This document shows, one piece after another, positions 47,833 to 52,775 of a DNA stretch of 64,000 nucleotides. Source of the DNA: Escherichia phage iGC_PHA_EC001. A program made the translations under genes and the position numbers. Where the stretch lies: the sequence record OR437326.1, one strand, 5' to 3'. The notes under the pieces were generated by a model. The model saw only the letters and a program-made list of their open reading frames with translations, ran no database searches and was not told the origin of the DNA. How positions within the stretch are numbered: position 1 is the first letter of the stretch; each line of letters starts with the position of its first letter.

Positions 47833-48044
47833 TAATCTTCCTCCAGATCAATTTCATTATAACAATGTATACAGAAACCATCATTGTGCATATGTTGTTC
47901 ATAAGACATATCTTTACCACAAGACCAACAACGGATATCCCCATCGTCCCATTCACGTTCTTCTTCGCCTTCAAATTCATCTGGTAGGTAAGGCATACCA
48001 AAATAATCTAAATCGTAACTCATATCTTCTCCTACCGAGTCCAC
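47832..48044 (-). CDS. small zinc-ribbon protein (70 aa)
   Basis: CWSC ... CIHC Cys4 pattern; acidic. Confidence 0.35.
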   Translation of the reverse strand: MDSVGEDMSYDLDYFGMPYLPDEFEGEEEREWDDGDIRCWSCGKDMSYEQHMHNDGFCIHCYNEIDLEED

Positions 48045-48622
48045 TCCTTACGTTGTTCAATATGTTCAAGCATATCGTTATACAATGTTTTAAGATGTGG
48101 AACAACTCTTTGATCTTCTGTTTCAAAAAACTTTGTAAGCTGTTCTGCTTTAGCTTTCAACCAACAAAGATGTGCCTCAAGTTCAGTATCAAAACGTCCG
48201 AGCGTTATAATACGACCATCTACTTTTATATGGGCTTTATATTTCTTACGATCTTTTTCGTAATAGAAGCCTACCATAGTGCCATGAGATCTTTTACTTA
48301 CCCTGTAAGCTAAAAACTTGTTAAGATCCCCTGTTACTAAAAGGCAGGTGGCGGGAGAGTAAACTCTCCCTCCTATGATATCTTTATCGAGTTCTAAGTT
48401 TTCCCAGTTATCCCAAGTTTTCAACCAAGTATAGAAGTTGGAAAACAGTTTCCATTCTTCACAGACCGTCACTCCATGATAACAAGGATCACGTTCTTGT
48501 TGGCAAGGGGAGTAACATCTCCCCAACATAGCCATCCATTTCATATAAGCAGGATGAGTTCCATGTTTATCCTTCACCACAATATGTCCATCGAAAACAC
48601 CAACACCATATACTGTTCGCAT
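48032..48622 (-). CDS. AP2-domain DNA-binding protein, homing-endonuclease-like
   Basis: C-terminal segment GFYYEKDRKKYKAHIKVDGRIITLGRFDTELEAHLCW fits the AP2 fold signature; N-terminal W..M..RC...Y.GV.VC..W motif common in phage HNH/AP2 proteins; lies next to the intein-containing polymerase. Confidence 0.45.
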   Translation of the reverse strand: MRTVYGVGVFDGHIVVKDKHGTHPAYMKWMAMLGRCYSPCQQERDPCYHGVTVCEEWKLFSNFYTWLKTWDNWENLELDKDIIGGRVYSPATCLLVTGDLNKFLAYRVSKRSHGTMVGFYYEKDRKKYKAHIKVDGRIITLGRFDTELEAHLCWLKAKAEQLTKFFETEDQRVVPHLKTLYNDMLEHIEQRKEWTR

Positions 48623-48648: not shown

Positions 48649-51600
48649 TCAATGACATGTGGCCCAAGAGTTACCCACATCATATCCGGCAGTAAGCTGA
48701 ACGTTAAGATTGTAAAATTCTCCAGCCTTAGTAACAGCTAAAGCAGCAAGTTCTCCTGCCCGACTATAAGCTGTAAACCATCCACCTTTGGGAGATTCAT
48801 GAATGTTAGCCCAAATTTGTCCCGTTTCTTTTTCCTTATTATGCTTCCATTCTTCAACTTTAGCAAGGCATTCTTTATCAATTTTCTTTTGTTCTTCGGG
48901 ATCGTCTACTTTCTTCCAACCTAATGATTCAGGTGAAAACCATTTAAATTCTACAAGGTTACGAGAAACTTCAAGCTGGGCTTCATCGTGATATGCAATC
49001 ATTTGTTGCACGAAATCTTTATTCTTCCAGTCATCTTTAAAGAAGTCAACACTTAGTCCTTCTTCTTCGATCATGTCGTCATAAATAACCATTGCACGTT
49101 TAGCACAGATAACCCCACCACTTTGGAACAGAGAGTTAAGAATCGCGTGAGCAGAACGAGTAGGAACCTTACGACCGTCAATACCCAAAACATATTGTTT
49201 ACCAGTCTTAACCCAAAAATCGTTTAAACGTTCTTTAAGACGCGCCAATGGGAATGCAGCTTCCCAGAAAGCATCAAACACCAATTGACCTGTAAACTTA
49301 TCGCTACCAATTGTTTTAGCAACCTTGTCGGCTTGTGCACCATAGGTAATACCATACTTAACAGATTTAGCAGGACTACGTTCAAATTTACGTCCAATAG
49401 TTTCAGTAATACGTTTTGCCATCATTGTGTGAACATCATTAGGTTTCTCTAACAACAGAGCGTTACAATACTCGTGTGGCTCCGGCTCGTACCGCCAACA
49501 GTTTCCTGTGATGGTAATGCAGTCTTTCTGACGCATGACCCACGTACCAAGTTCTGTTTGTGGACACCAAACATCCTCTACACCCCACTCTTCAATAGTC
49601 AAACTTTGAACAGGAATGTGAGAGCGGTTAGTCAATGTTGCCACTTTTACTTTCTGCTCTTTTGTATTGAAAGCTACAGAGATATTGCCTCCATGCACCA
49701 GGTACGAGGCAGTTAAAGCTGCTTCAAAAAGTTCACCTGGGTTCTGCGCCCAACGCCAAACAGGTTTTTGTTTATGTTCGTGCCAGTAACCATCTGCAAT
49801 CAAGAAACCTTCCAAGAAAGCTACACGCTCGGCATGAGACATATTAACTACACGTTCTACCCACGGAACATCCCATTTACCTTGTTGAACAGAAGTTAAA
49901 CTATTTACCTGATCTTGTTCCATGTTAAATGGAGCATTACAAATAATGTTATCTCCTGTGCAAAGCTCGGCAGTTGTTCTGACTTTAGGCACATAAGTAT
50001 TCCCTTTACTACGGGTATTAACATACCAACGGTGATCTGCTGTTGCACGGTAAGTGTGTGATTTCCCTTTAATCTCAAACGTCTTACTATTTTTATAGAA
50101 GACCTTACCTTTTACTTTAGTCCATTCTTTCAGACCTGTTTCAGCATTGTACCCTAAAATCTCATCCCCTTCCTTCAGGTCGTGATATCCTACCCAACCT
50201 TTACGAGTCAAAGCTTGAGCATCCATCGGCACACAGTAGTGTGATTCAATTTTTGCTTCCAAAGAGTCGAAGTCGTAGCCGATCTGGAAGTATTTAGGAA
50301 CCTCTACACCAAACAAGTTACGCATCTCCCACCCAAACAAAGATGTGACACGAGGAATATTAGCTACAGATCTATGCTTCATACGAGAGGTTGCAGCATC
50401 ACATGTAGCGGCTGGGGTAGGAATACGCCCATCCGCCCTTACTGCGGCTAAGAAACCTTTATCGTATTCTTGATCTTCTTCATCTTCTTCCCAATCAGCA
50501 CCGCCACCTAAAATAGAGTTCCTACGATGCTTATACGTTAAGTATTCTACAATCTGTGTAGCATAAGGAAACTTCTCACTCAAAGCTTGCAGGTTAGGAC
50601 AAATTTCTTTTTCCTGACCTTTGGTAAAACACGGGTTAGTCAATACTTTAAGACCGCGACCTTTACCTTTTGCTATACGCTCTTGAATCTTCCTTTCCAG
50701 GGTTTCCGGTGTGCACTCCAGATGATCACAACGATCCTGACAAAAATTAGAAGATAGAGTTTGCTCAACGTAAGCTCGGATACCTTTCTGAAGTTCTTCC
50801 TCGCTCTTTTTAATCTTGGTGCCAGATTTAAGAGTCAAGTCTTTATCTTTATATTCAGACGGTACCCAACCTAATCCTACAAGCCAGTTTTTAATATGGG
50901 TTGTATCGTTTAATGTTGCAGGAATGTTAGGATCACATAGAGGTTCATCTGCTGCAACTGGCAGTTTCCACTCTTTCCCCAACATAACTAACCACCAATC
51001 GCCATCCCTCTCTTCCAAATGACCATCATGTTTCTTAGCAAAATTGATCATATGGTTAGTTGGCTCTAAGTTCTTTTTAATTTGCAACTTAGGTGGAATA
51101 AAAGCCTTAAGATAACCTTTTGTTGCTGGTTTAGGTGGCAAAATAGGCTCAACGAGTAAACGAAGACGCTCCATTTCTGCATCCAAAAAAGCAAGGTTCT
51201 CTTCTGCTTGTTTCATGTTAAAAGCAAACCCACGGTGTTCCTGGCGTGTAATAATGTCTGCTACACGTTGTTCAAGTTCAAATGGACCTTCCCATTTATC
51301 ATAATCACCCCATTCTTCCATAAGGTAATTATATACACTTGTATTGGCTTTGTTGTCATAGATACAGTAATAAAGCATATCCGCAGCAAAAGTCTTAAAT
51401 CGATCTTCTTCTGGAATCTCTTTACGGAAATCTATTTTTACATCACCACCTGCTTTTCGAGAAAGTGCTGCCAAACTATGTCCTGATTTGCCCTCAATCT
51501 TTCGATCTGGGTTTAACACTTTACTCAAAATCAAGGAGTCAATAAGTTTTACCTTATTTTTGCCCCACGTATTATATTTAACACTGTAATCTAATCCATA

Positions 51601-51981
51601 AAACAGTTTTGTAGCCAACCAGTCGTAGTTGATACCGTTGTGAGCCACAGCCATTTCAACCAGATATTCAGGCTTGTCTTTAAAATAACCTTCATGATTA
51701 ATAAAATCTGGGAAATCTTTTAGTTGAAAATGTGTGTAATCTTGCGCCACATACTCTTTAAGAACATATGTGTATTTACCATCTGACTCTTCATAAGGAC
51801 GCCCATCAAAGATGTATTTAGGGCCATCGTGGAAAGCTACTATTTCTCCTGTTTCATGGTTCTCTAAGACAATACAGTGCATTTGAAATGTGTCTTTGAG
51901 ACGATAAGGACTAGCTAAATAATCAATAGTGTCATTATTCAACAATCCGTTTGCTTCAATATCCCATGTAAACTTACTCAC
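48649..51981 (-). CDS. family A (T7-like) DNA polymerase with 3'-5' exonuclease domain, precursor containing an intein
   Basis: N-terminal DIEANGL (Exo I); motif A DFDSLEAKI; after the insert KSVKYGITYGAQADKVAKTIG (motif B region); C-terminal GIDGRKVPTRSAHAILNSLFQSGG and ...GNSWATCH match T7 gene 5 polymerase pattern; GTG start. Confidence 0.85.
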   Translation of the reverse strand: MSKFTWDIEANGLLNNDTIDYLASPYRLKDTFQMHCIVLENHETGEIVAFHDGPKYIFDGRPYEESDGKYTYVLKEYVAQDYTHFQLKDFPDFINHEGYFKDKPEYLVEMAVAHNGINYDWLATKLFYGLDYSVKYNTWGKNKVKLIDSLILSKVLNPDRKIEGKSGHSLAALSRKAGGDVKIDFRKEIPEEDRFKTFAADMLYYCIYDNKANTSVYNYLMEEWGDYDKWEGPFELEQRVADIITRQEHRGFAFNMKQAEENLAFLDAEMERLRLLVEPILPPKPATKGYLKAFIPPKLQIKKNLEPTNHMINFAKKHDGHLEERDGDWWLVMLGKEWKLPVAADEPLCDPNIPATLNDTTHIKNWLVGLGWVPSEYKDKDLTLKSGTKIKKSEEELQKGIRAYVEQTLSSNFCQDRCDHLECTPETLERKIQERIAKGKGRGLKVLTNPCFTKGQEKEICPNLQALSEKFPYATQIVEYLTYKHRRNSILGGGADWEEDEEDQEYDKGFLAAVRADGRIPTPAATCDAATSRMKHRSVANIPRVTSLFGWEMRNLFGVEVPKYFQIGYDFDSLEAKIESHYCVPMDAQALTRKGWVGYHDLKEGDEILGYNAETGLKEWTKVKGKVFYKNSKTFEIKGKSHTYRATADHRWYVNTRSKGNTYVPKVRTTAELCTGDNIICNAPFNMEQDQVNSLTSVQQGKWDVPWVERVVNMSHAERVAFLEGFLIADGYWHEHKQKPVWRWAQNPGELFEAALTASYLVHGGNISVAFNTKEQKVKVATLTNRSHIPVQSLTIEEWGVEDVWCPQTELGTWVMRQKDCITITGNCWRYEPEPHEYCNALLLEKPNDVHTMMAKRITETIGRKFERSPAKSVKYGITYGAQADKVAKTIGSDKFTGQLVFDAFWEAAFPLARLKERLNDFWVKTGKQYVLGIDGRKVPTRSAHAILNSLFQSGGVICAKRAMVIYDDMIEEEGLSVDFFKDDWKNKDFVQQMIAYHDEAQLEVSRNLVEFKWFSPESLGWKKVDDPEEQKKIDKECLAKVEEWKHNKEKETGQIWANIHESPKGGWFTAYSRAGELAALAVTKAGEFYNLNVQLTAGYDVGNSWATCH
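49501..50235 (-). mobile_element. intein (245 aa) after polymerase motif A, with LAGLIDADG-like motif
   Basis: Begins Cys (CVPMDAQALT), block-B-like TADH, LAGLIDADG-like LEGFLIADGY, ends ...ITITGN followed by Cys +1; excision brings motif A next to the conserved downstream palm sequence. Confidence 0.65.
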
Positions 51982-52775
51982 TATTCCTCCTTTCTAATGT
52001 TCTCCAGAACCCACTGAAGTTCTTTTAAACTTAAACTTCTTACTCCCGCAGTTTTACTAGCTTCAGCTTTAAGTAACGGGTAAGCCTCAATGATACGCGT
52101 TTTAAGATCAGAAGTCAAGGCTTTTAAAAAGTAGGTAGATGCTTCAGATAAAGAATCTTCTTCTGATAACACTTTACCTGCACTTGCTCCCGCTCTCCTA
52201 ACGGCTATATCGTAGTCTTTACTGTTACCTAATACGAACAGTTGATTCTCTCCTAAAACAACGGGAGAACGCTTCTCGTTGCGTTTAATCCATATCTGGA
52301 ATACACAAGGAACATCCCAAGGTTCTCCATGAAGAATAAAAGATCCTTTTGGACATTCTTCTTCGTAAAGAAGATGCATGTGGGGATTTAGTTTGTGTGC
52401 AAAAAAGATTTTTTGAAATGTGCGAGGCAAGATAAAACAAATACCACCTTCGTTATCCAACATTTCAGCACAATGGTTAAAGAACTTAATGGCAAGACTA
52501 GCATTTTTTCCAAACGGAGGATTACCGACAAAAGCAGTTACACTACCAACAGACTCAACAGATTGAGCTAAAAAATCTGCCTCAATACAATCTTCAAACT
52601 TAGGGTCAATATCAAAAGAAGTTATGTTTTTAAAACAAGAAGAGAAAGCCCCTTCTCCCGCAGATGGTTCTACGTAGTTAGCTTCCTCTCCAAAAATTTC
52701 TTTGATCTTATCACATAAGAACCCCGCATAAGCGGGGTTAGTGTAATATTGATCAAGTGTGTTCAACTTGCTCAA
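51981..52775 (-). CDS. N6-adenine DNA methyltransferase (gamma-class-like)
   Basis: SAM-binding EPSAGEGAF followed by catalytic GNPPFG (NPPF); stop overlaps polymerase start codon. Confidence 0.6.
   Translation of the reverse strand: MSKLNTLDQYYTNPAYAGFLCDKIKEIFGEEANYVEPSAGEGAFSSCFKNITSFDIDPKFEDCIEADFLAQSVESVGSVTAFVGNPPFGKNASLAIKFFNHCAEMLDNEGGICFILPRTFQKIFFAHKLNPHMHLLYEEECPKGSFILHGEPWDVPCVFQIWIKRNEKRSPVVLGENQLFVLGNSKDYDIAVRRAGASAGKVLSEEDSLSEASTYFLKALTSDLKTRIIEAYPLLKAEASKTAGVRSLSLKELQWVLENIRKEE

Follow-up and report, generated by a model that had tools for sequence, protein, structure and literature searches.

A putative mobile intein with a single LAGLIDADG-type motif in the family A DNA polymerase of an Escherichia phage

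Background

Inteins are common in phage replication enzymes, and a candidate of this kind interrupts the DNA polymerase gene in the 64,000 nucleotide stretch of Escherichia phage iGC_PHA_EC001 analysed here (record OR437326.1, the whole stretch being termed the window), where a preliminary description made from the sequence alone had placed an intein at 49501-50235. Its closest described counterparts are found in two sister phages, for which the intein is annotated in GenBank, such that the core of this finding is already known. In the first, MZ501100 (phage PaulScherrer, BASEL Bas60), bas60_0044 is named 'intein-containing DNA polymerase precursor', and mat_peptide features mark both the polymerase and the intein; in the second, PQ821640 (phage SD2), SD2000071 has the same product name. 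These elements match that of the window in host gene, insertion site and length of 245 aa, and the PaulScherrer copy is 97.6% identical to it in amino acid sequence and 92% identical in DNA. PaulScherrer belongs to Justusliebigvirus, whereas the genome of the window is Phapecoctavirus-like.

Published accounts of these elements are brief. The BASEL paper states that inteins were identified precisely during annotation (PMC8594841), and the SD2 paper gives the intein-containing polymerase one sentence (PMC11841896). Inteins in bacterial DNA polymerase I have been mentioned by Novikova et al. (PMC4760082), and a 2024 paper states that no inteins have been reported in coliphages (PMC11162368). A literature search found no study of the splicing, endonuclease or distribution of the intein shared by the window and PaulScherrer. 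The mat_peptide 'intein' of MZ501100 (L001:3004-3738) is drawn one codon 3', running V...C instead of C...N; a Cys at either end of the intein allows such a displacement, C...N being the chemically meaningful boundary. The phi92 protein gp159 (RefSeq) carries the intein without annotation, as do most other records. As curated hidden Markov models (HMMs) score the element below threshold, most records give the precursor no name beyond 'DNA polymerase I' or 'hypothetical protein'.

Inteins of class 3 are marked by the WCT triplet, at positions B:12, F:4 and G:5 (PMC2807308, PMC5050341, PMC5222942). Three of 37 WCT inteins considered by Tori et al. have Ser1 or Cys1, and were left as unresolved cases (PMC2807308).

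Evidence for an intein in the polymerase

The gene into which the insert has been placed encodes a T7-like family A polymerase, as had been recognised previously: its product matches Pfam DNA_pol_A (44.2 bits against a cut-off of 34.3, E 1.6e-11), and T7 gp5 aligns with the intein-less allele (E 1.1e-22) across motif A, DxHT and motif B. It is 97-98.6% identical to the polymerase genes of phi92/rV5-like E. coli myoviruses (Stephanstirmvirinae: Phapecoctavirus and Justusliebigvirus), annotated in these relatives as DNA polymerase I, with the closest match being Phapecoctavirus 536P1 at 98.6%. Translation gives motif A, DFDSLEAKIESHY, as aa 570-582 of the precursor, followed by the insert, CVPMDAQ...CITITGN, as aa 583-827 and then CWRYEPE...DVHT; the boundaries first proposed were thus exact to the base, although the minus strand on which the gene lies had gone unstated. 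All sub-coordinates (Table 1) were re-checked by translation. The T7 alignment continues without gaps over the junction, from motif A (T7 GIDASGLELRCLAHF/MARFD, the slash marking here and below the point of insertion) through DIHT to motif B, which bears out the description of the insert as lying after motif A at a point uninterrupted in T7. In T7 gp5 numbering we take this point to lie between the equivalents of F487 and M488, 12 residues past the catalytic D475.

The most direct evidence comes from alleles in which the insert is absent. The polymerase of phage Mt1B1_P17 is 865 aa long, exactly 245 codons fewer than that of the window, and reads ...ESHY/CWRY..., gap-free on both sides, with exteins near-identical to those of the window (synonymous divergence, dS, of 0.03-0.11). 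The empty site in its DNA is TCACACTAC/TGTTGGCGG, and the same empty junction, HY/CWRY, is found in Justusliebigvirus alia. The insert is therefore present or absent among polymerases that are > 97% identical, and its absence is exact to the codon. A conserved non-splicing insertion in related polymerases, which the preliminary description had named as the case against an intein, was not seen; relatives are either empty to the codon or carry the insert.

The residues characteristic of inteins are all present, namely C1, T65, H68, N245 and C+1; the Cys1, block B T..H and terminal Asn followed by Cys read from the sequence earlier were all recovered by translation. An AlphaFold2 model built with 60 homologues (predicted local distance difference test, pLDDT, 93.7; predicted template modelling score, pTM, 0.90) has a Hint fold and one LAGLIDADG-type half-domain, in agreement with the single LAGLIDADG-like motif first noticed. 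The best 50 PDB matches listed for this model are all inteins, Hedgehog or BIL (Hint-type) domains, with a best E value of 3.5e-9, and those at the top are the endonuclease-bearing TliVMA, PI-SceI, PhoVMA and PI-PfuI inteins. Relative to the PaulScherrer copy, the ratio of non-synonymous to synonymous divergence (dN/dS) of the intein is 0.024, from 52 synonymous and six non-synonymous differences, and the carrier phages have been isolated and are viable although the insert splits an essential active-site region. Splicing is suggested by this viability together with the dN/dS of 0.02. Alleles, structure, family conservation (see below) and selection are four independent lines of evidence, which together make it very probable that a genuine, working intein interrupts the replicative polymerase of this phi92/rV5-like phage.

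Several observations weigh against such a reading. The intein HMM search, proposed earlier as a check, gave Pfam and NCBIfam matches that were below threshold or absent: Intein_splicing (PF14890) scored 16.6 bits against a cut-off of 35.8 (E 0.007), LAGLIDADG_3 scored 12.8 bits against 22.5, and no NCBIfam model matched the insert. Furthermore, the penultimate His (block G position 6) is replaced by Gly244. Nothing useful was found for the insert in PHROGs, and a single-sequence PDB search gave weak intein matches only (E >= 0.07). As the curated HMMs are sub-threshold, identification proceeds instead via the alleles, the family alignment and the structure. A penultimate His is common, not obligatory, in inteins. 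Splicing has been reported for phage inteins that have Gly in the penultimate position (PMC5050341), such that this substitution poses no problem for the assignment. The GC content of the intein, 0.41-0.46 against around 0.39 for the gene, was considered as a signal of foreign DNA; the difference is not usable for this purpose.

A family of related inteins

A profile search identified at least 255 homologous proteins, mostly metagenomic and phage-like, in which the intein resides in unrelated host proteins; this large family appears to be undescribed. Conservation was counted over an alignment of 60 sequences, 59 or fewer of which could be scored at some positions. At the N-terminal end, C1, T65 and H68 are present in 59 of 59 members and W70 in 57 of 59, while V222, W223, C224, T227, Q236, T243, G244 and N245 are found in all 60. 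The residue following Asn245 is Ser in 54, Thr in three and Cys in two (n = 59), whatever the host protein. Invariant terminal residues, combined with Ser, Thr or Cys at +1 in any host protein, form the pattern that splicing requires and are hard to explain otherwise. Some homologues carry precomputed matches to Pfam PF14890 or PF01079.

The main host of the family is a small, uncharacterised lysine-rich protein, in which the intein is found in the context ...NPxLWxxxKxxAKxKFDVYP/intein/SAYANGWAAKxYKxxGGxW...; the conservation of this splice site suggests an important motif of an unknown, probably viral, protein. A second context is ...WPSAYA/intein/SGALVKCR, and other hosts are family A polymerases interrupted in motif B (P0045, P0063, P0066 and P0009). 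Mini-inteins (P0005, P0008 and P0009), one-motif and two-motif inteins all fall within this family, the dominant form being an intein of 240-280 aa with one 'IVYDG'-type motif, of which at least 100 diverse examples are spread over several host proteins. Some members among proteins P0002-P0122 carry Pfam PF19846, PF19197 or PF18905.

Distribution and mobility

Among 127 phage records matching the polymerase, 34 have the intein at the site occupied in the window (site a), with 90-100% protein identity, and 12 have an intein in motif B, on the O helix (site b); none of the 127 has both. Each is found in both Phapecoctavirus and Justusliebigvirus. On the basis of these records, the family appears to occupy two active-site positions of one polymerase in Stephanstirmvirinae, after motif A and in motif B, in a mutually exclusive manner. 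The site b intein of phage nepoznato is 324 aa long, contains two LAGLIDADG motifs, is 32% identical to that of the window and has the junction KYG/C...LTGN/CTYGAQ, at the equivalent of T7 G527/F528. It lies at L003:3001-3972 (nepoznato, MN850571), and site b inteins are also present in ukendt, nieznany, AV126 and phiWec187. Alleles with a site b intein have Thr in place of Cys at the empty site a (HYTWRY).

Two sets of database records merit comment. MG065639, MG065645, MG065656 and MG065689, the unannotated 'Campylobacter phage' A150, A145, C3 and A110a, are labelled as Campylobacter jejuni phages and encode a Stephanstirmvirinae-type polymerase with a motif B intein 99.8% identical to that of nepoznato; the Campylobacter host label appears doubtful. 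OZ035773 ('Justusliebigvirus VEcB') has the site a intein, whereas the polymerase of NC_052663/MT932211 (phage VEcB) appears uninterrupted; these are probably different isolates named after the species.

Between the window and PaulScherrer, the 92% DNA identity of the intein falls to 73% in the N-extein and 80% in the C-extein, such that the tract of high identity is limited to the intein. Correspondingly, dS is 0.44 in the intein, 4.1 in the N-extein and 1.25 in the C-extein. The much lower value in the intein points to a far more recent common ancestor than that of the exteins, and hence to movement between genera. The intein would thus be an optional, laterally moving selfish element, present in approximately a quarter of related phage genomes. 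Weighing against this, part of the lower dS in the intein could stem from constrained synonymous positions, and not only from recent transfer. In Klebsiella phage KP13-16 the intein has diverged as much as the exteins, with dS saturated, which is consistent with an older residence there. Around site b, the 100 codons on each side of the insertion have a dS of 1.07 and 0.57 between nepoznato and the window, as against 0.25 and 0.21 in the rest of the gene; this raised divergence matches the trace expected if the flanks had been co-converted when the intein homed from a diverged donor.

Features of the locus and neighbouring genes

Table 1. Positions in the window of the polymerase precursor, its predicted intein and the adjoining endonuclease-like gene
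Feature	Position	Strand	Basis
Family A (T7-like) DNA polymerase precursor ORF, 1110 aa + stop, GTG start	48649..51981	minus	ORF list, Pfam, T7 gp5
N-extein, aa 1-582, C-terminal end in motif A ...YDFDSLEAKIESHY	50236..51981	minus	Translation, allele and T7 alignments
Predicted intein, 245 aa (245 codons), Cys1...Thr243-Gly244-Asn245, precursor aa 583-827	49501..50235	minus	Translation, alleles, structure model
Hint domain N-terminal part, intein aa 1-100, blocks A (CVPMDAQALTRKGW) and B	49936..50235	minus	Family alignment
Intein block B, T65-A-D-H68-R-W70	50026-50043	minus	Checked by translation
Single LAGLIDADG-type half-domain, intein aa 120-205, helix-strand-strand-helix-strand-strand	49621..49878	minus	AlphaFold2 model
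Motif LEGFLIADG	49789-49815	minus	Checked by translation
Hint domain C-terminal part, intein aa 206-245	49501..49620	minus	Block F DVWC224PQTELGTWVMRQ, block G ITITGN
Cys224 codon (block F)	49564-49566	minus	Checked by translation
C-extein, aa 828-1110, WRYEPE...DVHT after +1 Cys, then motif B (PAKSVKYGITYGAQ) and motif C	48652..49500	minus	
+1 Cys codon	49498-49500	minus	Checked by translation
Separate HNH-type endonuclease-like gene (free-standing, 196 aa), immediately 3' of polymerase, outside intein	48032..48622	minus	PHROG 953

The gene directly 3' of the polymerase had been described as a free-standing AP2-type endonuclease-like gene. Its product matches PHROG 953 'HNH endonuclease' with an E value of 7.6e-75, and its homologues are named HNH endonuclease in RefSeq; the AP2 label rests on a sub-threshold match (13.4 against 33.3 bits, E 0.1). 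No Pfam HNH match and no informative PDB relative were found for this product. Homologues are present in at least 35 records at 82-96% DNA identity, as counted by megablast, which missed the copy in PaulScherrer. The gene adjoins the polymerase in both genera, with diverged alleles in the same slot that differ in the N-terminal ~25 residues of the protein. It is absent from Mt1B1_P17, nepoznato and phi92, and present in the intein-less alia. All four combinations of intein and HNH-like gene are consequently seen: both in the window, the intein alone in phi92, the HNH-like gene alone in alia and neither in Mt1B1_P17. The two are therefore independent optional elements, and the term 'selfish-element layering' used of this arrangement is a fair one, with nothing linking the two functionally. 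An obligate linkage, as in collaborative homing, was considered and rejected, since all four combinations exist.

Upstream, the gene at 51981-52775 (minus strand) is a DNA N6-adenine methyltransferase according to the annotation of relatives, with a weak match to Pfam Eco57I here. Its end coincides with the start of the polymerase, such that a single base, 51981, belongs both to its stop codon and to the GTG start codon. Elsewhere in the window, a cluster of ten tRNA genes lies at 3902-5819 on the plus strand (Met, Arg, Ser, Asn, Thr, Gly, Gln, Pro, Ile and Met), the polymerase gene being on the opposite strand.

Splicing route and role of the half-domain

In the proposed mechanism, the polymerase would be translated as a 1110-aa precursor from which the Hint domain excises 245 residues, ligating ...ESHY to CWRY... 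and restoring the contiguous junction of motif A and the finger, with the junction peptide ...IESHY-CWRYEPEPHEYCNALLLEK. The N-terminal junction would be attacked by Cys1 and/or the block F Cys224; after transfer to the +1 Cys, Asn245 would cyclise and an S-to-N shift would follow. It is very improbable that the insert is instead a conserved non-splicing accessory domain kept in the mature polymerase. The sub-threshold curated HMMs and the missing penultimate His would fit such a domain; an accessory domain would not be expected to be optional among polymerases > 97% identical and deleted to the codon, nor to break a motif A/finger junction that is contiguous in T7 gp5, nor to have a Hint fold, and the same domain recurs in unrelated proteins with invariant terminal residues and a +1 nucleophile. 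Given splicing, the route is less clear, with class 1 somewhat favoured over class 3. The class 1 signature is present (Cys1, T65..H68, Asn245 and Cys+1), alongside the full WCT triplet of class 3, with W70 at B:12, C224 at F:4 and T243 at G:5. By the class 3 route, the somewhat less probable of the two, Cys224 and not Cys1 would attack the N-terminal junction, forming a branched intermediate at block F, and Cys1 would be dispensable or auxiliary. This is favoured by the conservation of the triplet at its defined positions (W70 in 57/59, C224 and T243 in 60/60), spaced as in MchDnaB1 (H65, W67, C124, T143, N145), and by the +1 residue, which in 57 of 59 relatives is Ser or Thr, as is usual for class 3. 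Similarly, among solved sequences the one closest to the family profile belongs to a phage-derived class 3 intein, AceL NrdHF (6zgq, E 1.1e-5), which also lacks the penultimate and F:13 His. By contrast, a class 3 intein has no Cys, Ser or Thr at position 1, the class being defined by WCT co-varying with loss of the N-terminal nucleophile (PMC2807308), and Cys1 is retained in 59 of 59 family members. Moreover, the window's intein has Cys at +1 where class 3 has Ser or Thr, Cys being rare there (PMC5222942), and Cys at F:4 is also found in some class 1 inteins (PMC4031507).

The role of the half-domain is similarly debatable. The AlphaFold2 model comprises helix 134-148, ending in LEGFLIADG, strands 149-154 and 157-164, helix 168-180 and strands 185-189 and 197-201. 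One motif and one half-domain are found where an intein homing endonuclease would have two LAGLIDADG motifs (blocks C and E), which counts against an endonuclease of the usual kind: the autonomous monomeric form is not encoded. Alignment with the two-motif nepoznato intein indicates that it is the first half-domain, of ~80 residues, that the window's intein lacks. A one-motif remnant is normally taken as a decaying endonuclease. However, 23 diverse domains (mean column identity 35%) all share K120, D148, G149 and Q164, and each of these residues is retained by at least 55 of 58 members of the family; D148, the canonical acidic residue of LAGLIDADG, is present in 56 of 57. The dN/dS of the half-domain relative to PaulScherrer is 0.046, and relative to KP13-16 dN is only 0.10 with synonymous sites saturated. 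The half-domain therefore appears to be under strong purifying selection, and the dominance of the one-motif form in the family, with its invariant residues and low dN/dS, argues against simple decay. It is possible, if unlikely, that the half-domain is active as a homodimer of two inteins, in the manner of I-CreI, and drives homing into empty alleles during co-infection. Such an enzyme would accord with the confidently modelled, complete half-domain, the conserved residues and selection just described, the at least 100 diverse one-motif inteins and the signs of cross-genus transfer. Against it, we know of no homodimeric one-motif endonuclease inside an intein, and a literature search for one-motif LAGLIDADG inteins found nothing relevant, such absence not being proof. 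The empty target sites a and b show no palindromic symmetry, the best arrangement pairing five of 11 half-site positions, within the background of the gene. When modelled in isolation (pLDDT 84.7), the half-domain has PDB matches that include I-CeuI (top), PI-SceI, I-DmoI, WhiA and bI3 maturase; these are weak (E >= 0.02) and corroborative only, with LAGLIDADG enzymes at ranks 1, 2 and 4 and unrelated folds interspersed further down. Furthermore, purifying selection may reflect a need for folding in the splicing of an essential enzyme, and the two-motif homologue in sister phages raises the prospect that the one-motif form is a deletion derivative. The half-domain may thus be kept only for the folding on which polymerase splicing depends, or for another role such as DNA binding. 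A separate enzyme encoded in an alternative or antisense frame, as in some actinophage inteins, was sought by eye, and only two ORFs, of 80 and 57 aa, overlap the intein. On a par with the homodimer in probability, and so likewise tentative, is an intein with no nuclease of its own, spread passively by phage recombination or mobilized in trans, the HNH-like gene being one free-standing endonuclease that might do so. Such an element would suit the presence of only half a LAGLIDADG enzyme, the HNH-type gene that adjoins the 3' side of the polymerase in both genera and the existence of mini-intein relatives. The four combinations of intein and HNH-like gene speak against an obligate partnership, and the confinement of the cross-genus tract to the intein fits site-specific insertion better, as general recombination would carry flanking extein along.

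Significance and comparison with known systems

The element is largely an ordinary, mobile intein of a familiar kind in a phage replication enzyme, and the finding mainly confirms that it can be recognised from raw sequence. There is some practical value in the annotation, as GenBank and RefSeq entries for these coliphages, which are candidates for therapy, mostly give the 1110-aa precursor a generic name. Specialist interest would lie in the class 3-like signature combined with Cys1, the apparently selected one-motif domain and the seemingly mutually exclusive homologous inteins. If the first is correct, a compact 245-aa E. coli phage intein with Cys1 and WCT and no penultimate His could clarify the origin of class 3; if the second, a selected one-motif LAGLIDADG domain would represent a new endonuclease architecture for inteins. 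Likewise, competition between two homologous inteins for nearby positions of a single polymerase would provide a tractable E. coli system for the study of homing and site switching.

Compared with the inteins inserted in motif B, those of nepoznato, ukendt and nieznany and of the metagenomic P0045, P0063 and P0066, the window's intein is 32-49% identical and shares the residues of blocks A, B, F and G and the type of host gene; these sit at the equivalent of T7 G527/F528, and it at that of F487/M488. With the class 1 inteins PI-SceI (1vde), TliVMA/PhoVMA (7qss, 7qsu, 7qst) and PI-PfuI (1dq3) it shares a LAGLIDADG-type domain between the Hint halves, Cys1, block B T..H, a terminal Asn and a +1 nucleophile. 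Those inteins are 360-540 aa long, with two LAGLIDADG motifs (blocks C and E) and, in many cases, a further region for DNA recognition, whereas the window's, at 245 aa, has a single motif, Gly in the penultimate position and Cys at F:4. The class 3 inteins MP-Be DnaB, Msm/Mch DnaB1 and AceL NrdHF are alike in their WCT triplet, its spacing and their association with phages, and unlike in lacking, by definition, the N-terminal nucleophile that the window's family keeps as Cys1. The half-domain resembles the free-standing, intron-encoded enzymes I-CreI, I-CeuI and I-MsoI, which similarly have one LAGLIDADG helix followed by strand-strand-helix-strand-strand, with conservation of the acidic residue and of a Gln that follows the first hairpin; these are 160-220 aa long and have pseudo-palindromic targets, whereas the half-domain is ~90 aa, embedded in a Hint domain and faces a target without symmetry. 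The boldest combination of these likenesses is also a rather unlikely one: with Cys1 and the full WCT triplet, the family may be a mechanistic intermediate, or a dual-route splicer, between classes 1 and 3, and a selected half-domain acting as a homodimer of two inteins would be the first I-CreI-style enzyme inside an intein.

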